NCBI GenBank assembly: GCA_021734245.1
Contig: JAIPJH010000001.1
Span: 1,823-65,822, forward strand
Reading direction: 5' to 3'
Origin: Candidatus Cloacimonadota bacterium
GTDB lineage: Bacteria > Cloacimonadota > Cloacimonadia > Cloacimonadales > TCS61
DNA length: 64,000 nucleotides
The position numbers were made by a program, and so were the translations under genes. Each line of letters begins with the position of its first letter. Position 1 is the stretch's first letter. Below the pieces are notes generated by a model. The model did no database searches. It was given only the letters and a program-made list of their open reading frames with translations, and was not told the DNA's origin. This document shows, piece by piece, positions 7,258-61,455 of this stretch.

Positions 7258-7297
7258 AAATTATTCAATTTTGGTGTCAATATATAATAAAAAACTT

Positions 7298-7523
7298 GTA
7301 TCCCCGAAAAATTTGGAAGGTATAAACCTGATTTATTTTAATAAATGAAATTGTTGCTATTCTACCCGTCTAAAATCTTATCCAGCAAAGCCCACGAATT
7401 TTTTAACCTGTGAAATCAATTCAATTTCACCGGGTCATTCATGGGAATCTTGATACGAGAAATATTTCTGACAACGGTTTCAACCGTTTACACTGAAAAA
7501 TAAATATTTTTCGGGTGATGCGC
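7298..7523. repeat. TIR-bounded hairpin-rich element, copy A (about 226 bp)
   Basis: Left end GTATCCCCGAAAAATTT and right end AAATATTTTTCGGGTGATGCGC are inverted repeats. The core is near-identical to 18214..18550. Internal hairpins: CCCACGAAT...ATTCATGGG and AACGG-TTTCAA-CCGTT. Confidence 0.75.
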
Positions 7524-7528
7524 AATAA

Positions 7529-7560
7529 TAAAAAAGCCCCGCTGAAAAGCAGCAGGGCTT
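7529..7560 (-). terminator. rho-independent terminator downstream of the FadL-like OMP gene
   Basis: Minus strand AAGCCCTGCTG-CTTTT-CAGCGGGGCTT forms an 11-bp stem with one G-U pair, followed by a T-run. Confidence 0.8.
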
Positions 7561-12359: not shown

Positions 12360-14033
12360 GTGAAGATGGTAAGAAAATTACCCAGCCACAAAAAGAAATT
12401 GATCATTTCTTTAAGTGTTTTATTGATAATAGGTTTTTTAACAACTAGTTTAGTAAGTTATTTTGTAGCACTTTCTTCCTTACGTTCTCAAATTTCCAGC
12501 ACCGAATTACCGCTAACCAGCGACAATGTTTACAGCGAAATTCAAAGAGATCTCTTCCGCCCTATCATCATTTCCTCAATGATGGCGAATGATACTTTTC
12601 TGCAAAATTGGATAGCTGGTGGTGAAAAGAATATCACTGAGATCACAAACTACTTGTCTGCTATCGTGCAAAAATACAACTTTTTTACCAGTTTTTTTGT
12701 TTCAGAAACAACCAGGATTTATTACCAATCTAAGGGTATTTTAAAAATAGTGCAGGAAGATGAAGAACGTGACAAATGGTATTTCCGAGTAAAAATAATG
12801 AAGGAAGAATACGAGATTAATATTGATCCTGATATGGCAAATAACGATGTAATGACTGTTTTTATTAACTACAAAGTATTCGATAATCGTGGAAATTTCC
12901 TGGGAGCTGCAGGGGTTGGGCTGGAGATTAAAACCTTAGTTGAATTTCTGGATAAATACAGCGAAAAATATAATAGAAATATTTATCTTGTCGACAATGA
13001 TGGAAATATAGTTCTGCATAATAATTCTCTTCCAGATACTTATCAAAAGATCCATCAAATGAATGGCATCAATGCCCTGGTGGATAGTTTATTATCTTCC
13101 ACCAGAAAAATGCTGAAATTTAATAGAGATAAAAGCACTGTTCATTTGAATACAAGATTTATACCAGAACTTAACATGCATTTATTTGTAGAGAAGATTG
13201 AAAATAAAACTATGAAGAATATTAATAATGCACTGATCATTAACTTAGTTTTATTTATTGTTATAACTACAATCATTATTCTATTAACAACTATTACAAT
13301 AAATATTTATCAGAAATTTGCCAATAAACAGCAAATCGAGATCTATGAAAAAAATACTGAGTTACAGAATAAAAATGAGGATCTTGAACAATTGATACAA
13401 GAAAAAAGTGCAGCCTTAGAGCAAAACAATCTTTTGATGCGGGAAATGAATCATCGAGTAAAGAACAATTTAGCAACAATACAGAGTTTGCTCCGAATAC
13501 AATCATCAGAAGTAAAAGATGATACATCACGCATGGCATTAAAAGAAAGTGAAAGCCGCTTGAAATCCATCACTCATCTGCATCAGATGCTTTCCCGGAA
13601 AATAGATCTTTCAAAAATCAGCGTTACGAAATATGTGCAAAATCTTGTAAACGATGTATTGAAGTCGTTCGATGTAAATACAGATAAGATCAGGGTCGAA
13701 ATGGAAGTTGAAGATATTGAACTCGATATGAATGTTTTAATTCCATTTGCTCTTATTCTGAACGAACTTCTTACAAATTCTTTAAAATATGCCTTCCCGG
13801 ATAATGAAGGTAAAATCAATATTTTTATAAATAGTGTAGACGATATGAATTGCCAGTTAACGTTTATTGATAATGGTATCGGCTTACCTGAAAACTTTAA
13901 CATCAAGGAAACTGATTCATTGGGAACTCAGATAGTTTCCATGCTGGTTTCGCAGATCCATGGAGATTTAAGTTTTAATTCGAAGAAAAATAAAGGAACT
14001 GAATTTTTTATAAAGTTCCCGACCAAAAAATAG
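12360..14033 (+). CDS. sensor histidine kinase (Cache-like periplasmic domain, HisKA_2, HATPase_c)
   Basis: 557 aa with two TM segments flanking an extracytoplasmic domain. H-box NHRVKNNLATIQSLLRIQ, plus N/G boxes (LNELLTNSLKYAF, DNGIGLP). The ATG at 12366, preceded by GAGGTG, may be the true start. Confidence 0.85.
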   Translation: MKMVRKLPSHKKKLIISLSVLLIIGFLTTSLVSYFVALSSLRSQISSTELPLTSDNVYSEIQRDLFRPIIISSMMANDTFLQNWIAGGEKNITEITNYLSAIVQKYNFFTSFFVSETTRIYYQSKGILKIVQEDEERDKWYFRVKIMKEEYEINIDPDMANNDVMTVFINYKVFDNRGNFLGAAGVGLEIKTLVEFLDKYSEKYNRNIYLVDNDGNIVLHNNSLPDTYQKIHQMNGINALVDSLLSSTRKMLKFNRDKSTVHLNTRFIPELNMHLFVEKIENKTMKNINNALIINLVLFIVITTIIILLTTITINIYQKFANKQQIEIYEKNTELQNKNEDLEQLIQEKSAALEQNNLLMREMNHRVKNNLATIQSLLRIQSSEVKDDTSRMALKESESRLKSITHLHQMLSRKIDLSKISVTKYVQNLVNDVLKSFDVNTDKIRVEMEVEDIELDMNVLIPFALILNELLTNSLKYAFPDNEGKINIFINSVDDMNCQLTFIDNGIGLPENFNIKETDSLGTQIVSMLVSQIHGDLSFNSKKNKGTEFFIKFPTKK

Positions 14034-18097: not shown

Positions 18098-18213
18098 AAC
18101 AACTCCATGCATTTTTTTTGGAAAAATGTTTAGAAGTGTTTTTTTGTCAATGAGAAATTACATTCCGTTAAATAGTAATTATTTAGCATTATTTGGGACA
18201 GAATATCTGAAAC

Positions 18214-18550
18214 CACGCATCCCCCCGAAAAAATTGAAAGGTATAATCCTAATTTATTGTAATAGCTGAAATTGTTATTATTTTTCCCGTCCAAAACCTT
18301 ATCCAGCAAAGCCCACGAATTTTTAACCTGTGAAATCAATTCAATTTCAGCGGGTCATTCGTGGGAAACCAGATACCGAATATAAAATTTATAACGGTTT
18401 CAACCGTTTTGCAAATTATAAACCATTGAAATGGTTATTTCAAAAAGATTTGAAAATTTACCCATGAATAAATTCATGGGCTTGAAATATTGAAATTCAT
18501 GCTTCTTCTTATTGATTTCTGAAAAAGAATTTTTTTTCGGGGGATGCGTG
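18214..18550. repeat. TIR-bounded hairpin-rich element, copy B (about 337 bp)
   Basis: About 22-bp terminal inverted repeats: CACGCATCCCCCCGAAAAAATT and AATTTTTTTTCGGGGGATGCGTG. The core is shared with 7298..7523. There is an extra module of about 110 bp with hairpins AACCAT-TGAA-ATGGTT and CCCATGAAT-AA-ATTCATGGG. Confidence 0.8.
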
Positions 18551-18627
18551 ATATCTAAAACAGGTTGACAGCAAAACTGATAATAAAAGCTTAGCAGAAG
18601 TGATAAGAAATCAAGAAGGAGGAAAAC

Positions 18628-18723
18628 ATGGGAAAAGGCGATCGCAGAAGTAAAAAAGGCAAGATCTGGCGCGGAAGTTATGGCAAGACCAGACCGCAAA
18701 AAGTTAAAACAAAAAAGAAATAA
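18628..18723 (+). CDS. 30S ribosomal protein bTHX
   Basis: 31-codon [34 protein letters not shown], which closely resembles Thermus Thx ([20 protein letters not shown]...). Strong SD AAGGAGG 6 nt upstream and a terminator directly downstream. Too short for the ORF track. Confidence 0.85.
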
Positions 18724-21295: not shown

Positions 21296-23218
21296 TCATT
21301 TTAAAAGTAGCATTTTTTTTTGCAGATTGATTTTTTCAGTTTTGAACCGAGCAAAATAGATACCGCTGGAAACTGGTTTGTTGTTTTGGTCGGTTCCGTT
21401 CCAGATTATTTGATGATCTGGAGATTGGGTGATTTGGAGATTTGAGAATGTTTTAACTTTCTGACCTTTTAGATTGTAAATTTCGATGATCGCAAATGAG
21501 GACGTTTGCGGTACATTGAAGCTGATTTTTGTAGTGGGATTGAAGGGATTGGGAAAGATATTTAAATCGAGATCAGAATCAGGAACAATGTTAGAATCTA
21601 TTGATGTGATTGCATTCAAGTCAAAATCGATCGGGCCAGTTGGAGCTCCGCTTTCTACCAGAACATCATCGATAGTTTGTGGTTCATAATTATCCAAAGA
21701 TGCAGTTATAGAATACGTTCCTGGTGAAAGTTCTAAAGAGTAAAATCCAAATTCATCGGGATTCGTAATCATGTTGGCAGTTGTTATTTCCACATCTATC
21801 ACATTTCCATTTCCACCGATCAGTGTGACGTTGCCGAAAACCATTCCGGGTGCAACTAAACCCCTTCCTTCATAAACTTTCATCTCATAGCTATCTGCAC
21901 AAATAACAAGATGTCCATCCATTCCAAGCGCGGGTCCGTCCGGTCTGTCAAATGTATCTTCCCAGATGAGGTTGAGCGATTCATCAAAACAGAAAAGTTT
22001 GTCCTGATGATTTGTGATGTAAAGATATCCTTCAGCATCAACGGCAGCATGAGGAGAAACAATACCTGCGCCTGGATCACCAATGACAATAGAAGTATCT
22101 AATATCGCTGGTTCACGATTATTGGAAAAATAATGCTGTCTTACTTTTTCTTCTCCTTTTGCAGGATAAATGGAACCAGCAAATAAAGTAGTTCTGTAAT
22201 TTGGAATATCATTGCTGATCCTGGTAGATGAATTTAAGATATCACCGCTATGAGAATCGATATGGATAACCTGATAATCGTAGTTGTAGGAATAAACATT
22301 TCCGTTCAGATCAACGCCAAAAGTGGCAAAAGGAATATAGCACAAACCAATCTGCCACATTCTCTCCAATTCACTTCCTGTATCGGTAAAAGCAACCAGC
22401 GAATCGGTTACTACATTGTTTTGGGTTCTGGGTGCATAAACTATTCCATCTGGACCCACGAAACAGCCAAGCTGTTGAACCAAACCGCCACCAACTCCAC
22501 CACTTTCATACAGGAACGCTCCTGTTTCAATATCGTGAACAACTATGGAAGGTCCGCTGGTACTGGCAGCCCAGCCATAAACATGATTTTCATAAACTGA
22601 AACTTCACTGCCGCTGGAAGTTGGGCTGTATCTGGTTTCCTGCCAGATCAATGAACCATCTGAAGCATTCAATCGCATGATATTCTGGAAATTACCAATG
22701 ATCAGATCGCCATTTTCAGCAAAAGTTACACATTCTCCTGAAGACATGTCTGTTAATTCTGTTGAAGTCCAGATTATCGATCCATCAGTTACATCCAGGG
22801 CATGCAGATAAGAAGCGTTCGTATTGCCGCTGCGGGTGGCATAAACCACGCCATCATTGGTACCGCAAACTCTACTTCGCCAGTCGGTGTCGGGAAAATA
22901 AACCGGCAGATCAACCGTCCACAATGTATCTCCGGAAGTGATATCATAAGCCACGATCCAGGTTCCATGCAGCACATCGTTCATATTGAAGGTCCGATCT
23001 GCAACGATCACATTTCCTTCTGTAAATGGCTGATGCGGCCAGTAGGAGAAAACATTACTTCCTTCCCACAAAACTTCATCTTCCGACAAGGAAGAAAGCA
23101 CACCATCCGCTTGTCCGTTTCGAGCAGGATTACCGCCATTTCCCACATGCCAGCTCCAGTTTTGAGCCGCAAGAATTACAGGTAAAATAATAAGGATTAT
23201 CAGTATTGATTTTCTCAT
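21296..23218 (-). CDS. secreted PQQ/BamB-like beta-propeller protein with T9SS C-terminal sorting domain
   Basis: Signal peptide. Repeated ..D..(T/S)G..(I/L)W.. blades. A carboxypeptidase-regulatory-like domain. C-terminus FPNPFNPTTKISFNV...IEIYNLKGQKVKTF...KKMLLLK. Confidence 0.75.
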   Translation of the reverse strand: MRKSILIILIILPVILAAQNWSWHVGNGGNPARNGQADGVLSSLSEDEVLWEGSNVFSYWPHQPFTEGNVIVADRTFNMNDVLHGTWIVAYDITSGDTLWTVDLPVYFPDTDWRSRVCGTNDGVVYATRSGNTNASYLHALDVTDGSIIWTSTELTDMSSGECVTFAENGDLIIGNFQNIMRLNASDGSLIWQETRYSPTSSGSEVSVYENHVYGWAASTSGPSIVVHDIETGAFLYESGGVGGGLVQQLGCFVGPDGIVYAPRTQNNVVTDSLVAFTDTGSELERMWQIGLCYIPFATFGVDLNGNVYSYNYDYQVIHIDSHSGDILNSSTRISNDIPNYRTTLFAGSIYPAKGEEKVRQHYFSNNREPAILDTSIVIGDPGAGIVSPHAAVDAEGYLYITNHQDKLFCFDESLNLIWEDTFDRPDGPALGMDGHLVICADSYEMKVYEGRGLVAPGMVFGNVTLIGGNGNVIDVEITTANMITNPDEFGFYSLELSPGTYSITASLDNYEPQTIDDVLVESGAPTGPIDFDLNAITSIDSNIVPDSDLDLNIFPNPFNPTTKISFNVPQTSSFAIIEIYNLKGQKVKTFSNLQITQSPDHQIIWNGTDQNNKPVSSGIYFARFKTEKINLQKKMLLLK

Positions 23219-23227
23219 GATTTCCTC

Positions 23228-26200
23228 CTATTTCAGCAACAACATTTTTTTTGTTAATTGCTGTTTTCCTTGCTTTAGTTTGTAAAAATATACTCCGGAT
23301 GATACAGGTTTATTATTTTCATCGGTTCCGTTCCAGACAATTACACCTTTGCTCGTTCCTAAACCTGCTTGCCAGTTCGTAGCTTCCTGCGAAGACTGGT
23401 TTGGGAAAGTAAACATTTTAACTTTCTGACCTTTAAGGTTGTAAATCTCAATTGTCGCAAAGTCGGAGCTTTGCGTTACGCTGAAGCTGATTGTTGTGCT
23501 TGGATTGAAAGGATTCGGGAAATTTTGGTTAAGAATTATTGTCTCAGCTTGTAAAATATCATCTGAATGTGGTGATATTTGTTCTGAAACTAAAATCATC
23601 TGATTTGTTTCGATATCATTAAGCTGTGAGATTTCTCCGGAAGGCCACATTACCAGAATTGAACCCACAGTTTCGGCGTCACCAAATCCTATCCTGGTAA
23701 TTATAGAATTATCTGCATTTACCAAAGTATTCTGGCTTACAACCGATCCACCAATCTCTGCTACCGATAAAATCTCGCAACCAATTCCATAATAGTTTGA
23801 ATTATAGCCTTCCAGTTCCACATAAAGCCAGTTATTGCCATTTCCATTATTCTGGAATAATTTATTATTCCCACCAAAATAGTTGTTCACAGCGAAAAAA
23901 ACATCCAAGTCTCCATCATCATCATAATCTGTCCAGCTTGCTTGCTTATTATAGTTACCATCATTTGCCAGAACTCCTTCCGAAGTCTGAGAAAAATTGC
24001 CCAGACCATCATTTTCCAGGATCAGGTTGAATCCGTCATAAGCCTGATGAAAAATATCGAGATCACCATCAAAATCGATATCAACAAAATCACAACCTCC
24101 ACCAGCATTTATATTGTCATGTGGAATATTCTGAACTCTGGTGAAAGATGCGTTCCCATCATTTTGATAGAGATAAACATCATACGAGCCGGCCGGCAAC
24201 ATTCCCGGAGCCACATAAATATCATAATCGCCGTCATTATCATAATCACCAGTCGCAGAGATATCAAAATTCTCCATTTCAGAAACGATAGGATCGTTCT
24301 GCAATGCAGTAAAACTGCCATCTCCGTTGTTCAGGAAAAGTGAATTCGTATCCGGTCCCGAATTTGCAATGAATACATCGGGATAGCTATTATCATCAAA
24401 ATCTGCCCAGACGCAGCTGCCGGAATTCTTGTTTTCCGAAACTAAAGGATCACCAGTAATTCGAGTAAAAGTTCCATCCGCATTATTTTGATAAAGAAAA
24501 TTTGCCTGAGTTCGATTGCAGACAAAAAGATCAAGCCAACCATCCTTATTATAATCTACCCATTCACAATCGGTAGAAGAACCGCTGTTATTTACAATAT
24601 CTCCGGTAGTAATTCTTGTAAACGTGCCGTCTCCCAGATTTTCGTAAAGCGCGTTATTTTCGTTGTAGTTGGAAACGAACAGATCAATATCACCATCATT
24701 ATCAAAATCTCCAGGAGCACAGCCGTAAGAACTGTCTCCGTCGGTTACGATGTCACCATCTGTAACCTTGGTAAAGGTTCCATCCTGATTATTCAAGTAA
24801 TAAAAATTGTGTTTACCATTATCACCATCATTATTACAAACAAAAAGATCATCCCAGCCGTCAGCATCAAAATCTGCCCAGCAGCAGTCGTAATTCCAGC
24901 CGCCGTCATTTACAATATTTCCGGTTGTGATCTGAGTAAAAGAGAATGTTTCTTCTACAAAATACTCGTAAGGTCCCATATCTACTTCATCACCATAAAT
25001 CCGATCTTCTCCAGCCAGATCAAAGGTGGTAAGTTCGTATGGAACTGGCAATATGGAAGTTCCGCTGTCAATACAGGGTGAATTTTCGGTTAACAGATAC
25101 TGATCGTCGATCAGAGGATCTGTATCGATGTTGCCATCCAGCCAGTTTACAATCGTATTAACTGTGGAAATACCGGTTTCTCCACCTTCGATACAGGAAT
25201 ATTCCGAAGTTACGGTATTTTGTCCACCATCAACTCTGCAATGTATCTGCTGTGGAAGATTTCCCCAGAGAACAGAGTTAACGAAATAAGGTGAAGAACC
25301 GCTCCAACCATAGAAAGCTCCGCCATCAGCATTGGAAGAATTATTGTAGAAAGCAGAATTAATATAATAAGAACTGCATTGGCTAGAAAAAATAGCACCA
25401 CCATCACTGGTTGAAATATTATCATAAACAAGCACATTCTGCAGAACAATTGTTTGCAGCCAGATGAACATTGCTCCACCCAGATTGGCAGAATTTCCTT
25501 CCATAATGCTGTTTTTCACAGTTAAATTTGTGTTGAATGTTCCGATCGCACCAGCTCTTTCTATTGCCTGATTGTGCAAAAACACACAATTATCTATTAC
25601 AGGATCAACAAGTGGTGCTTCTCGATAAAAAACTGCTGCCCCTCGCCGGGCTGAATTATCATGGAAAAATGAATTTGTGATATTCCCACCTCCTCCGACG
25701 TTATAATAAACAGCTCCTCCTTTATCACTGTTACAACCGTAAACCTCAATTTTATCTATGATTGGAAGAGAGTTGTCGTAGGCACAAATTCCACCTCCGT
25801 ATTCAGCATTACAGTTAGAAATTATTAAGTTTTCCAATTTGGGACTGGAAGCTAAATTGCAGAAAACTGCCCCTCCAAAAACATGTAGAGAACCAGACGG
25901 AGTTGTGTAGGATGTTCCACTGCCATTTTGCAATTTAAACCCTGTTAAAACAGCTGTGGAATCTTCTCCACTTTCAAAAAGTACCACGCCACCCATTTGA
26001 TTTCCATCGATTATTGTTTGGGAAATGTAACTTGTATCCTGCGTAGTATGATAGAGTGATGCAACTGTGATCAGTTTTCCGTTGAAATTCAGATTTTCCA
26101 GATAAGTTCCAGGTTGAACGAGAACTATGTCTCCATTTGCAGATGCGTCTATTCCTTCCTGAATCGTTGCATAATCATCTGGAATGTTTATAGTTATGGA

Positions 26201-29331: not shown

Positions 29332-31180
29332 TCGTTCCCGGCGGCTTGGTCGTCACATCATAGAGCAGATTGCCAACTCCATTTATTTTTTGAATAAGTC
29401 TTGTAAGCCGTTCAAATTCAGCAAAATCCATTTCATAAACGCTGGCAGTCATGGCATCGGTAGAACAAACCGGACGTATAACGAAAGCCTGTTTTTTATT
29501 TTGATAAAGTGGAAGCGCTACTACCGGCATTTGCCAGATCTCCGGAATGTGATCAGTTTCCTGTCGCAAAACTGCATCTACTTTCCGCAATTTATCCATG
29601 ACCGGTTTTTCCAGGAAAAGTTTCTGTAGCTTTAAATCGACCGGCTGCCAACTGAACACGATCCTGTTGACTGATATTAGTTTATTGATAGCTCTTGATG
29701 CTCCAATTCTCAGATTTTCCCATTCCGGTTTAAAATCTGACTTGAACCAAACTACCGCAGGATGATGATAGGTGCGGAAATCTCCCTGCACACCTACGCT
29801 CTTGATCGGCAGGATTTTTCCTTCTAAACCAAATTCTATTAATATCTCGTTTAGCATTTTTTCTTCTTTTTCAAAATCATCCCGAGTTGTATAAGTGTCA
29901 TCCTGAGCGGAGTCGAAGGATACACTCTTCTTTGTCGCACTTCGACTACGCTCAGTGTGACAGTCATTTATCTCTGTATCCGAGCAGATAACACGGATCG
30001 CTAAACCTGGACCGGGAAAAGGATGACGATGGACCAGTTTTTTGGGTAATCCAAGTTCTTCTCCCAGTTTGCGAACTTCATCTTTGTAGAGTTCTTTAAT
30101 CGGCTCAATCACACGTCCTTCTGCGATGAGTTTTGCAATTTCATCCACTCGATTGTGATGTGTTTTTATCTTAGCTGCTTTATCTGTAGAACCACTTTCG
30201 ATTGTATCGGGATAGATCGTTCCCTGCACCAGCATCAATTCTGCTTCTTTTTCCAATGCTGCCAGTTCCTGATTGGCAATATCAACGAAAAGTTTACCGA
30301 TTATCAAGCGTTTTGCTTCCGGTTCTACAACGCCCTTAAGTTCGTTCAGATAAAGTTCTTCCGCAGCGATGATCTTGATATTTTCGAAACCGAGTTTTTC
30401 AAAATGTTCCATGATCTCTTTGGATTCGTTCTTGCGCATGAATCCTGTGTCTACATGGATGGAAAAAATATTTTCATTCCCAACTGCCTGAATGCAAAGT
30501 TCCAGAGCAACGAGGGAATCAACTCCACCTGAAAGCAGTAGAACTAATTTTCTGCCTTTTGCTTCTTTTCGAATTTGCTGAATCAGTGTTTCTTTGAAAT
30601 TTTCTGCTTTCCAGTCGCGTTTTTCAGTACAAACTGAAATGAACTTATCCAGTATATTCAAGCCGTTTGTAGTATGTGTCACTTCCGGATGGAACTGCAC
30701 TCCAAAAAATTTCTGATCTTTTGATTCATAAGAAGCAACTTTTATCGAATCGGAATAAGCTGTGATGCGGCATGAATCAGGTAATTCTGAGACATGATCA
30801 CCATGACTCATCCAAACTGTTTGCTGAGAATCCAAACCAGAAAACAAAGCAGAATTGTTTTCGCAGTTGATCGAAGTGAATCCGTATTCTTTGTTTTCTC
30901 CGCTTTCGATCGTTCCACCCAGCATGGCAGCCAGGATTTGATGTCCGTAGCAGATTCCCAGAATTGGACTCTGAATTTCTTCGATTTCAATGTTTATACG
31001 ATACGCATCTTCAGCATTTACCGATTGCGGTCCGCCGGAAAAGATGATGCCCCCAATTTCGTCTGTAACTTCAAATTCTTCGGGGTGATAGATCTCGCTG
31101 TAAACTCCCAGGTTTCTAACTCGACGAGCAATTAGATGTGTGTATTGTCCGCCAAAATCTATAATTGCAATTTTATTCAT
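29318..31180 (-). CDS. guaA: GMP synthase (glutamine-hydrolysing), long form
   Basis: N-terminal class I GATase (GICYGHQ), ATP-PPase P-loop (SGGVDS), and C-terminus KPPGTIEWE. At 620 aa it has an extended two-part C-terminal region and an in-frame repeat-derived insert. Confidence 0.9.
   Translation of the reverse strand: MNKIAIIDFGGQYTHLIARRVRNLGVYSEIYHPEEFEVTDEIGGIIFSGGPQSVNAEDAYRINIEIEEIQSPILGICYGHQILAAMLGGTIESGENKEYGFTSINCENNSALFSGLDSQQTVWMSHGDHVSELPDSCRITAYSDSIKVASYESKDQKFFGVQFHPEVTHTTNGLNILDKFISVCTEKRDWKAENFKETLIQQIRKEAKGRKLVLLLSGGVDSLVALELCIQAVGNENIFSIHVDTGFMRKNESKEIMEHFEKLGFENIKIIAAEELYLNELKGVVEPEAKRLIIGKLFVDIANQELAALEKEAELMLVQGTIYPDTIESGSTDKAAKIKTHHNRVDEIAKLIAEGRVIEPIKELYKDEVRKLGEELGLPKKLVHRHPFPGPGLAIRVICSDTEINDCHTERSRSATKKSVSFDSAQDDTYTTRDDFEKEEKMLNEILIEFGLEGKILPIKSVGVQGDFRTYHHPAVVWFKSDFKPEWENLRIGASRAINKLISVNRIVFSWQPVDLKLQKLFLEKPVMDKLRKVDAVLRQETDHIPEIWQMPVVALPLYQNKKQAFVIRPVCSTDAMTASVYEMDFAEFERLTRLIQKINGVGNLLYDVTTKPPGTIEWE
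29895..29963. repeat. 69-bp imperfect palindromic element embedded in frame in guaA
   Basis: Arms GTGTCATCCTGAGCGGAGTCGAAGGA and CACTTCGACTACGCTCAGTGTGACAG. Related copies at 34414..34442 and 61711..61740. Confidence 0.8.
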
Positions 31181-31207
31181 TAATCCTCTTTCATATCTAA
31201 TACTAAG

Positions 31208-31338
31208 CTCCCCTTTGTAAGGGGAGGGCGAGGGGTTTTGGCGGATAAATAACCAATCTTGATTTTATAAAACCCCCTCCCAGTGGAATATCCACAGGAT
31301 TCCACGGGATAAATTTTGTCCCCCTTCTAAAGGGGGAC
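31208..31338. repeat. composite GC-rich four-hairpin repeat (family R2), copy a
   Basis: CTCCCCTT-TGTA-AGGGGAG; GAGGGGTTTTG...AAAACCCCCTC; GTGGAAT...ATTCCAC; GTCCCCCTT-CTA-AAGGGGGAC. Near-identical to 38109..38239. Confidence 0.85.
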
Positions 31339-33547: not shown

Positions 33548-34840
33548 TTAAAATAATTTTTTTCTTTTACCAATATCTTTTCGATAAAACATATCATCAA
33601 AAAAGTAATTATTCACCTTCTCATAAGCTTTTTGGATAGCATTATCCAGAGTTTCACCATGAGAAACAATATTTAAAACGCGACCACCTGAAGTTACAAT
33701 TTCACCATCCATTTTTTTTGTTCCGGCATGAAAGATCAATTCATCAGCTTTTTCCAAACCACAAATTGGATAACCTTTTTTGTAAGCTTTGGGATAACCG
33801 CCGGAAACCAGTACCACATCCACAAAAAAACCAGCGTTGAACTCCATCTGATAATCTTTTAATGAACCATCAAAGCAGCTTAAAACCAGTCTCAGCAAAT
33901 CACTTTTCATCGCTGGCAGCACAACTTCAGTTTCCGGATCACCCAAGCGGACATTGTATTCCAAAACCTCGGGTCCTTTTTCTGTGATCATCAAGCCAAA
34001 ATAAACTATCCCTTTGAAATTGAAACCTTCTGCTTTTATACCTTTCATGGTCGGAAGAATTACATCCTTCTCGATTTGCTTCTTAAGTTCTTCATTGTAA
34101 AATGGAACCGGGCAGAAAGCTCCCATACCGCCGGTATTGGGTCCTTTATCGCCATCCAAAAGTTGTTTATGATCTTGCGAAGGCAGAAGAAGCTGATAAT
34201 TTTCTCCATCTGTAAAAGCCAGAATAGATAACTCATCACCGATCAGTTTTTCTTCGATCAGATAAGATGCATCTTCCCCGTATTTGGAATGAATTTCCTG
34301 CAGAGCAGATTTTGCTTCTTCCAGTTTTGAGCAGACAAAAACTCCCTTTCCTGCTGCTAAACCATCATATTTTATTACACAATTACCATTGAGCTTTTTA
34401 ATTACTGACAAGCTGTCTCCTTCGACTCCGCTCAGGATGACATTTTTTTTATTTTTTTGTGCTTTTTTATGGCAATTTCCAAATTCCCAGAAATCTGCAG
34501 TAGCAACTCCATATTTCTGCATGAATTTTTTAGCAAAGATCTTGGATCCTTCCAGTTGAGCTCCGGCTTTATCCGGCCCAAAAACCTTAACCGGTGTTTC
34601 GGCAAAATAGTCTACAATTCCGTTTGCCAGAGGATCTTCCGGCCCCACAAAGATCAGTTCGATCAATTCTTGAGCACAAAATTCCTTGATATCTGCAAAA
34701 TCATTTACATCAATTTTTACATTATTTTTCGTTCCACCATTTCCTGGTAGAACATACACTTTATCAGCTAAATCGCTTTGTTCCAATTTCCAGGCGATGG
34801 CATGTTCCCTGCCACCAGAACCGATAACTGCAATATTCAT
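33548..34840 (-). CDS. purD: phosphoribosylamine-glycine ligase
   Basis: MNIAVIGSGGREHAIAWKL start (ATG after AGAGG; the track starts 6 codons upstream). ATP-grasp DGLAAGKGV motif. Carries a repeat-derived in-frame insert. Confidence 0.9.
   Translation of the reverse strand: MNIAVIGSGGREHAIAWKLEQSDLADKVYVLPGNGGTKNNVKIDVNDFADIKEFCAQELIELIFVGPEDPLANGIVDYFAETPVKVFGPDKAGAQLEGSKIFAKKFMQKYGVATADFWEFGNCHKKAQKNKKNVILSGVEGDSLSVIKKLNGNCVIKYDGLAAGKGVFVCSKLEEAKSALQEIHSKYGEDASYLIEEKLIGDELSILAFTDGENYQLLLPSQDHKQLLDGDKGPNTGGMGAFCPVPFYNEELKKQIEKDVILPTMKGIKAEGFNFKGIVYFGLMITEKGPEVLEYNVRLGDPETEVVLPAMKSDLLRLVLSCFDGSLKDYQMEFNAGFFVDVVLVSGGYPKAYKKGYPICGLEKADELIFHAGTKKMDGEIVTSGGRVLNIVSHGETLDNAIQKAYEKVNNYFFDDMFYRKDIGKRKKLF
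34414..34442. repeat. single arm of the GTCATCCTGAGCGGAGTCGAAGGA palindromic family, in frame in purD
   Basis: The reverse complement of 34414..34442 contains GTCATCCTGAGCGGAGTCGAAGGA, identical over 24 nt to the guaA copy. It is translated as VILSGVEGDS. Confidence 0.8.
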
Positions 34841-38070: not shown

Positions 38071-38108
38071 AATTTCCTCAAGTTATCTTTTGTAGAATCT
38101 CCACTAAG

Positions 38109-38239
38109 CTCCCCTTCGTAAGGGGAGTTTGAGGGGTTTTGTTTGAAAGTAATATAAATTCCACTATCAGAAAACCCCCTCCCAGTGGAATATCCATAGG
38201 ATTCCACGGGATAAATTTTATTCCCCCTTCTAAGGGGGA
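38109..38239. repeat. composite GC-rich four-hairpin repeat (family R2), copy b
   Basis: Same order of hairpins as 31208..31338. This is the source of spurious ORFs 38078..38269 and the start of 38139..38663. Confidence 0.85.
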
Positions 38240-45750: not shown

Positions 45751-47991
45751 TTATTTCATTAAAATCATTTTTTTTGTAATTGTATCATTTCCTGTTTTCA
45801 AGCTTACAAAATAGATTCCGCTGGAAACAGGTTGGTCGTTATCATCAGTTCCGTTCCAAACGATTTGCTGATCTGACGATTGATTGATTTGAAGATTTGA
45901 AAAGGTTCTGATTTTTTGTCCTTTCAGGTTATAGATTGCGATGGTGGCAAACGAGGAAGTTTGCGTTACATTAAAGCTGATTGTCGTAGTAGGATTGAAT
46001 GGATTGGGAAAGTTGGAAAGTGATATTTTTTGATTATCAGGAAGATCATTCCCGGCTGAAGAATTATCGTATTCATAAAGCTTAACTGAACCGGAAAGCC
46101 AGACTGGATTATTCAGATTATTAAAATTATCCCAGAATCCATACCAGCTTTCATTTGTTGGAACATCAAAAGAAGCTGAACCAGACTGCATCTCTAAAAT
46201 TTCATTGAACGTTTCGAAATTTCCACCCATTGTATAAATTTGATAATAAAGATCATCGGTCATAAAGAAGTTGACAACACCACCATCTTTTGCTGCATAA
46301 AACTCTGTATCATCTATATCATCAAAAATGAAATCTCCATGAATTATCTGTTTTAATACATCGTATTCAAATACCATTTGATAATCTTGTTCAGGATCAG
46401 CAGGAGTCGGAATTTGTGTATATTCGATATTCGGCATTTCACCATCTGCGATAAACACATATTCATATTCTTCACCGTTTATCGTATTATCGATCAATAA
46501 ACTGTATTCATCTGGATTTACAGGATCATCTCCAATGGAAGATTCCATTCTGGCATAAAATGATCTTCCTTCTCCGACGATGAAAACATATTTTCCATCT
46601 TCATCGGTATAACCAAAGTTATCATAAACTAAGCCGGGATCAGTTATTTTCAATATTATCTTTGCACCATCAATAGGATTGCCGTTAATATCTTCGGCAT
46701 AAACAGTTATCGTAGCATGTTCTTCTGAATATCTGTCTGTAACCGGCAAAAGCAGACCATCACTGCGAATTTCGAATACCGAACCGAAAACCTTGCCCCA
46801 GCCGTTTTCATAAACCAGTGGAATATTGATATAGCCATTTACAGGTTCCCACATGATCCAGCCTTCGTTCCAAAATTCGTTCCAGGTATGATCTCCAGAA
46901 TAGCTGAGAACACTTGAGCAGGGAATTAATGCAGAGCGCGCAGCAGCTGAAGTGAGATCGGCATATTCACCACATCTTCCAAAATGCTTACGATAAATCC
47001 TGACGGGTTGATGCGGACGTTCATAATTGGAAGTGAAACTCATGGATGCATTTATCCAATTTGTTACTTTATTTATAGCAGTATCAGTTGTTCCGCCGGA
47101 TTCATCCCATAAAACAGAAATTCCGGAAAGTTCATCTCGCAGAACTGGATAATTCATATCAGCCTGATTAAACAAAAAATCTCGCCAGAATCTGCCAACT
47201 GGAGGTGCTACAATATTATTTTGATGCGTGTTATTATCTTCCACTATTTCAGGATCGACATATGATGATATCGCATCCGTTATTTTGGGATGAACGATAT
47301 ACATGTAGTAAATTTCTTTGGGAATTTCAAATTCGACCGTATCACCATTTTCATCGATTTTCCAATATTTAGCCGTTGAATAATAGTTTTCATCTGTTGT
47401 CGATGTTCCATAATCAACAATTTGTACAAAATCCAGATTCAGATCGGCCACAAAAAGCAGCATTGCATTATAATCGAATAATTCAGGATAACAAAAATCG
47501 GAACTGAGAAACTGAACTGATGAATGAGCGATTGCAAATGCTATCTCATCAATATGGGGATCATAAGAATTGTTGATTACTGCTGCAAGTTCATTCTGTG
47601 TATCTGTATCTAATTGAGTAAATTTATTCTGTAAAGCCGGCCTCAGCCATTTGGGACTCTTTTCCAAAGCTGCCAGAGCATCCGAGGTTAAAAGATCCAG
47701 AAAGTTCGAAACAACATTGATCTGACTTGAAATGTGATCAAATCTGGCACCCAGAAGATCACCATTATTCAAAATCGCTTCCAGATCAAGAGAATCAACT
47801 AATACCCAGCCTTCACGATTTGTTTCGTTATGATCCTTTTCAAAATTCCGATCATAATCTTCCTTGGAAATTGTTTTGGCAGGTTTTCCCTTAATATCAT
47901 TCCCTGCGGGAAGATAATTTGTAAGCCCATTTTCTGCGATTAATGCTACTGTAAAAATCAATAAAAAAACCAAAATAATACAACGTTTCAT
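45751..47991 (-). CDS. secreted transglutaminase-like protein with T9SS C-terminal sorting domain
   Basis: Signal peptide. Transglutaminase core GRCGEYADL...GDHTWNEFW. C-terminus FPNPFNPTTTISFNV...IAIYNLKGQKIRTF...KKMILMK. Confidence 0.7.
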   Translation of the reverse strand: MKRCIILVFLLIFTVALIAENGLTNYLPAGNDIKGKPAKTISKEDYDRNFEKDHNETNREGWVLVDSLDLEAILNNGDLLGARFDHISSQINVVSNFLDLLTSDALAALEKSPKWLRPALQNKFTQLDTDTQNELAAVINNSYDPHIDEIAFAIAHSSVQFLSSDFCYPELFDYNAMLLFVADLNLDFVQIVDYGTSTTDENYYSTAKYWKIDENGDTVEFEIPKEIYYMYIVHPKITDAISSYVDPEIVEDNNTHQNNIVAPPVGRFWRDFLFNQADMNYPVLRDELSGISVLWDESGGTTDTAINKVTNWINASMSFTSNYERPHQPVRIYRKHFGRCGEYADLTSAAARSALIPCSSVLSYSGDHTWNEFWNEGWIMWEPVNGYINIPLVYENGWGKVFGSVFEIRSDGLLLPVTDRYSEEHATITVYAEDINGNPIDGAKIILKITDPGLVYDNFGYTDEDGKYVFIVGEGRSFYARMESSIGDDPVNPDEYSLLIDNTINGEEYEYVFIADGEMPNIEYTQIPTPADPEQDYQMVFEYDVLKQIIHGDFIFDDIDDTEFYAAKDGGVVNFFMTDDLYYQIYTMGGNFETFNEILEMQSGSASFDVPTNESWYGFWDNFNNLNNPVWLSGSVKLYEYDNSSAGNDLPDNQKISLSNFPNPFNPTTTISFNVTQTSSFATIAIYNLKGQKIRTFSNLQINQSSDQQIVWNGTDDNDQPVSSGIYFVSLKTGNDTITKKMILMK

Positions 47992-53840: not shown

Positions 53841-53910
53841 GTCCCCCTTCATAAGGGGGAACAAAATTTATCCCGTGGAATCCTGTGGATATTCCACAGG
53901 GAGGGGGTTT
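53841..53910. repeat. partial family R2 repeat, copy c, inverted relative to copies a and b
   Basis: GTCCCCCTT-CATA-AGGGGGA, then CCGTGGAATCCTGTGGATATTCCACAGGGAGGGGGTTT. Confidence 0.8.
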
Positions 53911-55256: not shown

Positions 55257-55297
55257 AATTTATATTTGATCCCTGAAAAGAATATCAAGAATGTAAG

Positions 55298-55551
55298 TCT
55301 CCCTTCGTAAGGGAGAATAAAAGAGGGTTTGCACAAAGAAAAAAAAATACTTAATAATCTTTCAAAACCCCTCTGCCTTCGGCATCTCCCCTTCCAAAAG
55401 GGAGCTTTTTGTTTGTTTATTCTTGTTCCTAAACTCCATATGGTAATACCATTTCCAACCATTGCGAAGGTCGAAAAAAGCAAGAAGTTCGAAAACCATG
55501 CGCAAGGTTTCACACACCCCACGGCTAAAGCCGCACCCCTCTCAAGAGGGG
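55298..55551. repeat. hairpin-saturated spacer (degenerate R2 modules and related CCCCT/AGGGG hairpins)
   Basis: TCTCCCTT-CGTA-AGGGAGA; AGAGGGTTTG...CAAAACCCCTCT; CTCCCCTT-CCAA-AAGGGAG plus a T-run; CCCCTCT-CA-AGAGGGG (55536..55551). This is the source of spurious ORF 55253..55567. Confidence 0.7.
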
Positions 55552-55563
55552 AATTTTCACGTC

Positions 55564-58767: not shown

Positions 58768-61455
58768 TTATTTCAGAAGCAACATCTTCCTGGTTTGCAA
58801 AACTTTACCACTTTTAAATTTACAAAAATAAATTCCTGAAGCAACAGATTTATTCTTATCATCATTTCCGTTCCAAACAACACTTCCTACACTCGTTCCA
58901 AAACTCCCGTTTGGGAATGCAAAAGTTTTGACTTTTTGTCCTTTCAAGTTGTAGATTTCAATGGCAGCAAACGAGGACGTTTGCGGTACATTAAAACTAA
59001 TTGTTGTGGCAGGATTGAACGGATTAGGATAGATTGTCGTGATTCCTGTCATTAAGTCAAGTTCTTGTAAAACACCTGTACCTTCATAAATAAATCCGAT
59101 ATTTATTATTACTGATTCACCACCGTCATCATATACAGCACTCACACCTGCTAAATATGTTTGCCCATTAACCAGATTTTCAAATTGCCACTCAGTTTCT
59201 TCAGTAAAATCTACAAAGGTGGAATCCAAATATACATTGAAACCAGACAATGTATTTAAAGGTGGTGCCAGCCAGGATAATATTCCCGTATTTTCATCAA
59301 TCTGTACATTTCCGGGAGGTTCATAATTGCCCCCGAACCACTCCAAAGTAAGATCAATATTATCTGTAACTTGCCCTGGTATAACAATAACGTCCTCAAT
59401 AATATCAGTTTCATAATTGATCAAAGTAGCCATTACATCATAGGTTCCCGGCTCAATTGTGATTGAATAATCTCCATTTGCATCGGGATGCACAGTTTGA
59501 TCTCCTGCAATAACTTCCACATCTTCCACATTTCCGTTTCCACCATCCAACGTAACCATTCCTTCTATAGTTCCAGCGTATCCGGGATTTAACATTACAT
59601 CATCTACATACCAATAATTAATATCAAATGAATTACCTTCGAAAACCCAGGCTATTTGAAATGTTTCTGAGCCAACATCTGGTGATATGAAGTTAAGACT
59701 GATAATCTGAGGATCAATATTAGCAATCGGTTCAATTTCCCATACTGTATTCCAGTTAGTTCCATCGCTGGTTGTCTGTACTCTCAAAGTATAAGGGTCT
59801 CCATCATAGTCGTTCACAGAATGCCAAAATTCAAGCATTAAGGCTGAACAATCTTCTGTATTCAGAATTGGGCTTATAAGTCGTTGAGTTGCAGTTGTAC
59901 TTGGTGACCACGAAAATTGTGCTTCCGGTGCATTTCCACCTGCATTGTTGCCCATTCCGTGAACCCAGTTAACCTGCCCTGAAGTTGATTCTGTTGTCCA
60001 ACCATCAGGCAGCCAGGTGGTAAAATCTTCCAATATCAGATAAAGAGGTGGCCACCAGGGAATATTTGATTCTGCTATTCCACCATCACCTATAGCATTG
60101 TAAGGCTGGACGGAATAATAATAAATTCCTGCAGCAGGGATAGTATCGTCGATAAACTCAGTTGCAATACCTGCCAGTTCGAAAACACAATTATCCGGAT
60201 ATCGAACGATATGATATCCAAGAATAGACATATTGAATGCACCGCCATGTAAACCGGTTGTTGGATTATCCCAAGTTAGTGTTGCTGATAATATTCCTGG
60301 AGCAGTTTGCTCACATAGCAGGTTCTCAACTGCTGCCGGGACATCTTCCCCAACCCACACAGATTCCACATAGGGAATTCCCTCTCCATAGCTGTTGTAA
60401 CCTACTATTCTGTATTCATACATGCCATTGTCTGGAACAGTATTATCAAGATAACTTCCCGGTCCGCCAATGACAGGATCTTCGTCTGTATAGATCAAAA
60501 CATCATCACGATAAACACGCATTCCCAGTAATTCTGTTAAAGGTGTCCCATAAAACGTATTTTCAGGGCAAGTCCAACTTAAGCTTACTTCCAGGATACC
60601 AGAAGGATCAGGGATAATGTCCACATCCTGCGGACTTCCAGGAAAATCGCCTCAGGGTGAATAACCCACCTCTAAAAGCACAATATAATCCGGTGTTCCT
60701 TGCAGCAATACTCCTAATGATCTGTAACTGAGTTGCCAATCGGTCATAACGCAAGCACCGCCGGCAATAGCTCCGGCAGCCCCATAAATTGTAGCATTAA
60801 ATACATCTAATTGTGCCAGACTGTTGTAAGGATCGAGCCGATAGATATTACAACCGGGATCCTGGCTGTGAGCATAAAGATAAGGGCCAATTGGATCACA
60901 ATCATAAGCCAGACCATACAGAGAACCCCACCAGGGATAGCTGTTCAAAATAGTACCATCTCTATCCCAGTTTACGATGTTGTCTCCCCAGTTGCCACTC
61001 CAGAAAGTATCGCTAACCTCATCATATGCAAGCGCCCGAACTGATTGTCCAGCAACGTTGATAAAATTAGCTGTAACTGCATTTCCGGTTTCAGATTCCC
61101 AGCAGAAAACTTCCTGTGAAGCAGCTGAACCGTACATATAATTGCCATCGAAAGCCATGTCTCGACAACCTGTAAGAGGAGCTGTGATCGGTTCAATATA
61201 ATTTCCATCAACATCAAATTTGAAAAGCTGATCACTGCCGTTCCATTTGGATGCATAAAAATAAGTTCCATCCCATTCCACTCCGGCAAGTCCGGTCTGT
61301 CCTGTTGGTGTATCTACATCAAACTGCAGAAGCACATCCCACATATCTTCTGTTTCAGGAATATCGACTTTTGTCTGGATCGGAGATTTATCCTGAATTG
61401 AGTATGAATTAATAAAATATAAAATCACAAAAAATAAAATCGCAAATCGTTTCAT
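58768..61455 (-). pseudogene. T9SS-sorted surface protein split by a single in-frame TGA (60654..60652)
   Basis: The two track ORFs are in the same frame: ...LLEVGYSP*GDFPGSPQDVDIIPDPS.... The upstream part has the signal peptide (MKRFAILFFVILYF) but no sorting domain. The downstream part has the sorting domain (YPNPFNPATTISFNV...KMLLLK) but no signal peptide. Confidence 0.7.

Follow-up and report, generated by a model that had tools for sequence, protein, structure and literature searches.

A probable MITE in two copies, each flanked by 11-bp direct repeats, in a Candidatus Cloacimonadota bacterium

Two intergenic copies of a non-coding repeat

The window, meaning the whole 64,000-nucleotide stretch of Candidatus Cloacimonadota DNA analysed here, contains two copies of an intergenic repeat. 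Copy A lies between a FadL gene and a radical-SAM/SPASM gene, and copy B lies upstream of the tdh-acpS-kbl operon. When each copy was searched against the window by blastn, only the other copy was retrieved; the two share 188 nt at 84.6% identity (E = 3e-55) and a further 45-nt match of 80% at their right ends. A repeat scan of the window also returned the pair (as D4 and D5). The copies are 11 kb apart in the same orientation. No third copy was found in the 64-kb window or in the adjoining 1.8 kb on its left and 7.5 kb on its right, a search that covers about 73 kb of the source contig. Both copies have a GC content of 33-34% and occupy AT-rich spacers.

The boundaries were set by aligning the ends of copy A to the better-preserved ends and terminal inverted repeats (TIRs) of copy B. 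Copy B (18214..18550, 337 bp) keeps the limits given in the first-pass annotation, while those of copy A were corrected from 7298..7523 to 7295..7524 (230 bp). The element and its parts, including the flanking direct repeats, are given without strand. As the first-pass annotation had noticed, TIRs bound both copies; they are near-perfect in copy B and degenerate in copy A. In copy B, the left TIR is CACGCATCCCCCCGAAAAAATTG (18214..18236) and the reverse complement of the right TIR is CACGCATCCCCCGAAAAAAAATTC (18528..18550). The inverted termini, CACGCATCCCCCCGAAAAAATT and the reverse complement of its partner, CACGCATCCCCCGAAAAAAAATT, are near-perfect over about 21-22 bp, and both ends start with CAC. 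In copy A, the left TIR is CTTGTATCCCCGAAAAATT (7295..7313), with three substitutions in its first five bases, and the reverse complement of the right TIR is TGCGCATCACCCGAAAAATA (7505..7524), where the TIR 17-mer matches residues 7506-7522 with two mismatches. The ends of copy A read CTTGTATCCCCG and TGCGCATCACCCG, the terminal bases having mutated to CTT and TGC, and copy A is probably a fossil copy. With up to three mismatches allowed, the TIR 17-mer was found at three of the four element ends and nowhere else in the 64 kb, where 0.24 matches are expected by chance.

In both copies, the TIR ends were found to be bordered immediately by direct repeats of 11 bp. The first-pass annotation had proposed to look for target-site duplications (TSDs) and had missed these repeats. 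Copy A is flanked by ATAATAAAAAA on the left (7284..7294) and by the same sequence on the right (7525..7535), identical at 11 of 11 positions; the right repeat forms the minus-strand U-tract of the FadL terminator. Copy B is flanked by ATATCTGAAAC on the left (18203..18213) and ATATCTAAAAC on the right (18551..18561), identical at 10 of 11 positions. The background was estimated from 3.2 million combinations of position and spacing across the window: abutting 11-mers with at least 10 of 11 identical residues occur at 2.5e-5 per position, and those with 11 of 11 at 6e-7. No position in the window other than the true site reaches 10 of 11 identities at the spacing of copy B. Since the repeats are equal in length and in register with the TIRs while differing between the two sites, they bear the signature of transposase-made TSDs. 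The difference between the sites also marks them as duplicated target sequence, as opposed to a constant att core, and integration at an att site was rejected because the flanking repeats of sites A and B are unlike each other. The earlier statement that the flanks outside the element are unrelated holds beyond the TSDs.

The near-identical core noticed at first was located at 7377..7446 in copy A (70 bp) and at 18298..18366 in copy B. It reads CTTATCCAGC...TGGGA and is identical at 67 of 70 positions (96%). The core forms a long imperfect hairpin, CCCACGAA...TTCATGGG in copy A, in the folds of both strands; in copy B its outer stem of 8 bp, CCCACGAA/TTCGTGGG, is perfect. A second hairpin, AACGGTTTCAACCGTT, is identical in copy A (7473..7488) and copy B (18393..18408), and a minus-strand scan marked it as terminator-like in copy B only. 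The extra module of about 110 bp described for copy B was recovered as an alignment gap (18410..18518) and folds into three hairpins (18421-18436, 18438-18455, and 18461-18480). No TIR and no TSD of its own were found at the borders of this module. On the evidence of these indel borders, a nested MITE was rejected as its origin, and the module is a case of internal length variation.

Copy A has no coding capacity, as stop codons break all six frames. The ORFs overlapping copy B, including 18130..18339, have no Pfam match. The latter ORF, which also runs into stops in copy A, had been judged unlikely to be coding, and that judgement stands.

Several other repeats were seen in the window. An unrelated family of about 135 nt has three copies with 90-96% identity (31202-31337, 38103-38239, and, inverted, 53844-53910), two of them between purine-biosynthesis genes. 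It contains G/C-rich hairpins (CTCCCCTTTGTAAGGGGAG, TCCCCCTTCTAAAGGGGGA, and GAGGGGTTTT...AAAACCCCCTC) and may represent either a further MITE or a composite of REP-like type. An intergenic cluster of short G/C hairpins at 55290-55560 (CTCCCTTCGTAAGGGAG, CTCCCCTTCCAAAAGGGAG, and CCCCTCTCAAGAGGGG) resembles those of the 135-nt family, and a contig of the Logan assemblies (L101) ends in this cluster, as contigs do at the copies of the MITE. A 32-nt inverted pair (AAGTGTCATCCTGAGCGGAGTCGAAGGATACA; 29893-29924 and 34414-34445) is 94% complementary, with its arms 4.5 kb apart, and flanks part of the purine gene cluster. Lastly, a direct repeat of 115-225 nt has four copies with 64-83% identity (21333-21557, 23285-23522, 45788-46012, and 58825-59032). 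Since all four fall within the 3′ ends of genes that match the Por_Secre_tail domain (C-terminal sorting, T9SS), they look like coding similarity and not like a mobile element.

Insertion sites and the corresponding loci of relatives

Five relatives were compared over their syntenic loci (114 kb in total; L085, L089, L096, L097/98, and L099), with Tdh sequences 88-90% identical to that of the window. The closest named homologues of the window Tdh belong to Candidatus Cloacimonetes and Candidatus Tenebribacter MAGs (87-90% identity). The histidine kinase encoded at 12360..14033 retrieved, as a query for syntenic genomes, only distant paralogues of at most 49% identity from other phyla. Neither blastn nor nhmmer with a profile of the two copies gave a significant match to the element in the loci of the five relatives (best nhmmer E = 0.15).

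One relative (L085, Tdh 90% identical) has kept the junction between the FadL and radical-SAM genes without the element and thus provides an empty orthologous site for copy A. There, the FadL stop codon is followed by a terminator hairpin (GCCCTGCTG...GCGGGGC), a T-run, GCAG, TTGACA, 33 nt, and the start codon (ATG) of the radical-SAM/SPASM gene. This terminator is also present in the window (7560..7534, minus strand), where it is followed by TTTTTTATTAT, the 230-bp element, TTTTTTATTAT again, ATA, TTGACA, and the ATG. The hexamer (7275..7280, minus strand) is a putative -35 sequence of the radical-SAM/SPASM gene; it belongs to the host, lies 3 nt beyond the left TSD of copy A, and is in the same place in the relative. 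When copy A and one repeat were removed in silico, the window became colinear with the relative across the junction, from FadL into the radical-SAM gene; an allele without the element would read ...GGGGCTTTTTTATTAT followed directly by ATATTGACA. Copy A has therefore landed between a terminator and a promoter, in a spacer of some 14 bp, and the accompanying duplication regenerated the T-tract of the FadL terminator.

At site B, the junction without the element would read ...ATATCT[G/A]AAAC followed by AGGTTGACA. A block upstream of tdh, (AATTTCT)NATTGACAAAA...AAACATTTTTCCAAAAAAA..GGAG..ATTATG, is kept in all five relatives and is intact in the window. None of the five has the element upstream of tdh, and their neighbouring genes differ from those of the window, so that these loci are not strict empty sites for copy B. 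In the window, a small Thx ribosomal-protein gene (18628..18723, plus strand; 31 aa, PF17070) lies between a gene for a 204-aa protein and tdh. Copy B starts some 50 nt upstream of the tdh TTGACA and ends 14 nt upstream of another TTGACA (18565..18570, plus strand), a host sequence upstream of the Thx gene and 3 nt beyond the right TSD. Copy B thus sits between the divergent promoter-like regions of Thx and tdh and not in a leader. The first-pass annotation had assigned both copies to the 5′ regions of minus-strand operons. That is right as to position only, since copy B precedes the plus-strand Thx gene just as much. Upstream of tdh, the five relatives have genes for EF-G, a dCache_2 protein, an RRM protein, and a 203-aa protein, and no Thx gene was called there; the junction is a rearrangement hotspot.

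At each copy, exactly 3 nt separate one TSD from an outward-facing TTGACA, a hexamer of which the window has only 22, counting both strands. This distance may stem from preferential targeting or from selection that left insertions at the few harmless sites. At site A, the spacer is too short for almost any other harmless position, and at site B the chance of such a coincidence is a few percent, with two sites in total to judge from. Since both insertions have left the terminator and promoter motifs intact, no large effect on expression is expected.

Mobile element, structured RNA, or duplicated sequence

The first-pass annotation left the choice between a MITE-like element and a structured RNA. 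Of these, the MITE side is borne out by the TIRs, the TSDs, the non-coding sequence, the intergenic position, and the empty site, while the RNA side is not borne out by Rfam, by the relatives, or by the position of the copies. The RNA reading would make the copies a structured non-coding RNA or a riboswitch-like leader of the downstream minus-strand operons, with the TIRs as its closing helix. Both copies are indeed upstream of minus-strand genes, their minus-strand folds are stable (z = -3.0 for copy A and -7.1 for copy B), and the internal core is unusually conserved. However, the plus strand folds about equally well (z = -2.9 and -6.8), and equal folding of both strands is expected for palindromic DNA. 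The stem positions that can be read for strand are two, from two sequences, and they favour opposite strands. The single stem substitution of the core hairpin in copy A (CCCACGAA/TTCATGGG) gives a C-A mismatch on the plus strand and a G-U wobble pair on the minus strand. In contrast, the C-to-T changes in the terminal helix of copy A give G-U pairs on the plus strand only and A-C mismatches on the minus strand, contradicting the core hairpin. Across the window, no Rfam family matched at the gathering score, and around copy B the hits at E-values up to 10 were at chance level, in line with the earlier remark that no standard RNA family was recognised. The tdh-acpS-kbl and radical-SAM operons are functionally unrelated, and a helix would not account for the flanking 11-bp duplications. 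The five relatives have no such element upstream of the orthologous genes, and the copies lie upstream of conserved TTGACA hexamers and hence outside the likely transcripts. The core pattern is also absent from 596 Gb of genomes and from the JGI metagenomes. A structured or cis-regulatory RNA is thus not supported by the absence from orthologous positions, by the site outside the likely transcripts, or by the stem data, and I regard it as very improbable.

A plain segmental duplication, or a recombination product of intergenic sequence, formed without transposition, would agree with there being just two known copies, 11 kb apart in the same orientation. Against this, the copies have diverged by 15%, yet each keeps its own 11-bp TSD of a different sequence. 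Moreover, the TIRs set identical boundaries in both copies, the sequence outside the TSDs is unrelated between them, and the empty site fits a precise insertion. Such an origin is likewise very improbable.

It is therefore very likely that both repeats are copies of a small non-coding MITE mobilised in trans. What was found agrees with the usual description of such elements: a length below about 500 bp, no transposase gene, TIRs, TSDs that differ in sequence between the sites, and an empty orthologous site for copy A. The published profile of prokaryotic MITEs (PMC10969869) fits the copies in size, in the AT-rich intergenic site, and in the folds on both strands. The internal hairpins are typical MITE content. 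The family has been undescribed so far, while the kind of element is ordinary.

The uneven conservation of the copies deserves a comment. Outside the core, the shared part is about 75-82% identical, with the arms at about 80%, and a stretch as conserved as the core has a permutation p of about 0.003. That the interior and not the ends is best kept is unexpected for a MITE maintained by transposition alone. The conservation of the core could result from gene conversion between the copies, from a binding site for a host factor or the transposase, or from a functional RNA. A functional internal module (a small RNA, a protein-binding site, or an insulator under selection) or promoter-proximal targeting is nonetheless improbable in my estimate.

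As for the mechanism of the MITE, a transposase encoded elsewhere would bind the TIRs of about 21 bp (CACGCATCCCCC(C)GAAAAAA..), excise or copy the element, and join both 3′ ends to the target at an 11-bp stagger. Gap repair would then leave direct repeats of 11 bp, as found beside each copy. Copy B, whose ends are intact, could still be mobilised, while copy A, whose ends have decayed, is probably fixed. The 11-bp stagger and the 5′-CA termini suggest a DDE transposase of the IS4 family, of the IS4 or IS231 subgroup type, as the best fit. The transposases of this family carry a YREK motif. TSDs are 10-13 bp in the IS4 subgroup and 10-12 bp in the IS231 subgroup, and most subgroups of the family have 5′-CA ends (PMC2266710, Table 1). 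Correspondingly, the TSD is 11 bp at both copies, and 5′-CA is present at both ends of copy B. No transposase gene was found in the window (Pfam and gene tables) or in the gene tables of the fetched loci. A full-length IS with matching TIRs was likewise absent from the window, from 1.4 Mb of fetched loci, and from viral contigs, and none of the other fetched loci contained the terminus of the element. As no partner IS was found, the family is assigned by inference, and given that the element is a MITE, an IS4-family partner has about even odds or slightly better.

It is possible, at lower odds, that the element is a MITE as described, mobilised by a transposase of another family able to produce 11-bp TSDs, because the family assignment draws solely on the length of the TSD and the terminal dinucleotide. 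Candidates are IS481, with TSDs of 4-15 bp, IS1182, with 0-60 bp, and ISA1214-type elements, with 8-12 bp. Few IS families besides IS4 are known to reach 11-bp duplications. IS481 elements usually have TGT...ACA ends and mostly shorter duplications, which speaks against IS481 as the source. In addition, 11 bp at both copies combined with 5′-CA ends is a typical IS4-family signature (PMC2266710).

Related kinds of elements, distribution, and significance

Among known elements, the MITEs derived from IS4-family elements are close in kind to the MITE described here. MIC231, which derives from IS231 in the Bacillus cereus group, is also non-coding, has IS-like TIRs, and is mobilised in trans. The 5′-CA termini are shared as well, as is a TSD close to one helical turn in length (IS231 subgroup, 10-12 bp; IS4 subgroup, 10-13 bp; PMC2266710). 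In contrast, the ends of IS231 read CAT... and those of the present element CAC..., the host of MIC231 is a Firmicute and not a Cloacimonadota MAG, and here no partner IS was found. Chunjie of Geobacter uraniireducens (178-235 bp; PMC10969869) and the Correia elements of Neisseria resemble the element in being intergenic, AT-rich, and rich in hairpins, in having TIRs and direct repeats, in inserting beside promoters and terminators, and in varying in length by internal deletions. However, they are present in tens to hundreds of copies per genome, compared with the two copies seen here, their duplications are of different, shorter lengths, and their sequences are unrelated to this element.

Likenesses to two other kinds of repeats are more limited. 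BOX elements of Streptococcus pneumoniae (boxA-boxB(n)-boxC) also carry variable internal hairpin modules between conserved ends, but their modules are tandem copies of one unit, whereas the module of copy B consists of three different hairpins. Clear TSDs are also lacking in BOX elements and present here. REP/BIME and IS200/IS605-type palindromic elements are likewise intergenic, palindromic, and repeated. They are, however, short GC-rich palindromes with no long TIRs and no TSD, whereas this element has both TIRs and TSDs.

The distribution of the element was assessed in public collections. The core pattern GCCCACGAAN{4,9}AACCTGTGAAAT occurred in none of 185,579 species-representative genomes and in none of the JGI metagenome contigs, and the left-end pattern CCCGAAAAANTTGRAAGGTATAA, common to both copies, had no match in the metagenome contigs either. 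In viral contigs, the TIR and core patterns matched four loci, all of them chance matches without further similarity. A blastn search for distant similarity, with copy B as the query, gave no match among plasmids or phages. A six-frame pseudo-protein of both copies, meant to pick up spurious ORFs annotated on further copies, was compared with 5.8 billion proteins and retrieved nothing at E-values up to 10. No MITE in Cloacimonadota was described in the literature searched. As far as exact-pattern searches tell, the family appears to be confined to this lineage.

The Logan assemblies of SRR12088346 and SRR12088347 hold parts of both copies with identical sequence. Since independent assemblies agree, the repeat is not an assembly artefact, and that explanation was rejected. 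Three Logan contigs (L002, L004, and L095) end inside the copies, at window positions 7429, 7464, 18314, and 18509. One of these four breakpoints falls at a 30-mer common to copies A and B. The 30-mers at the other three each occur at a single place in the window, a hint that the sample may contain additional copies or variant sequences. Repeats of this kind break short-read assemblies of this organism exactly at the element and are thus relevant to the binning and scaffolding of these MAGs.

For annotation, both blocks should be labelled as mobile-element insertions and not as regulatory RNAs of the tdh-acpS-kbl and radical-SAM operons. The element is a small addition to biology that opens no new question alone. 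Its 11-bp duplication points to an IS4-like transposase that is active, or was recently active, in this lineage.
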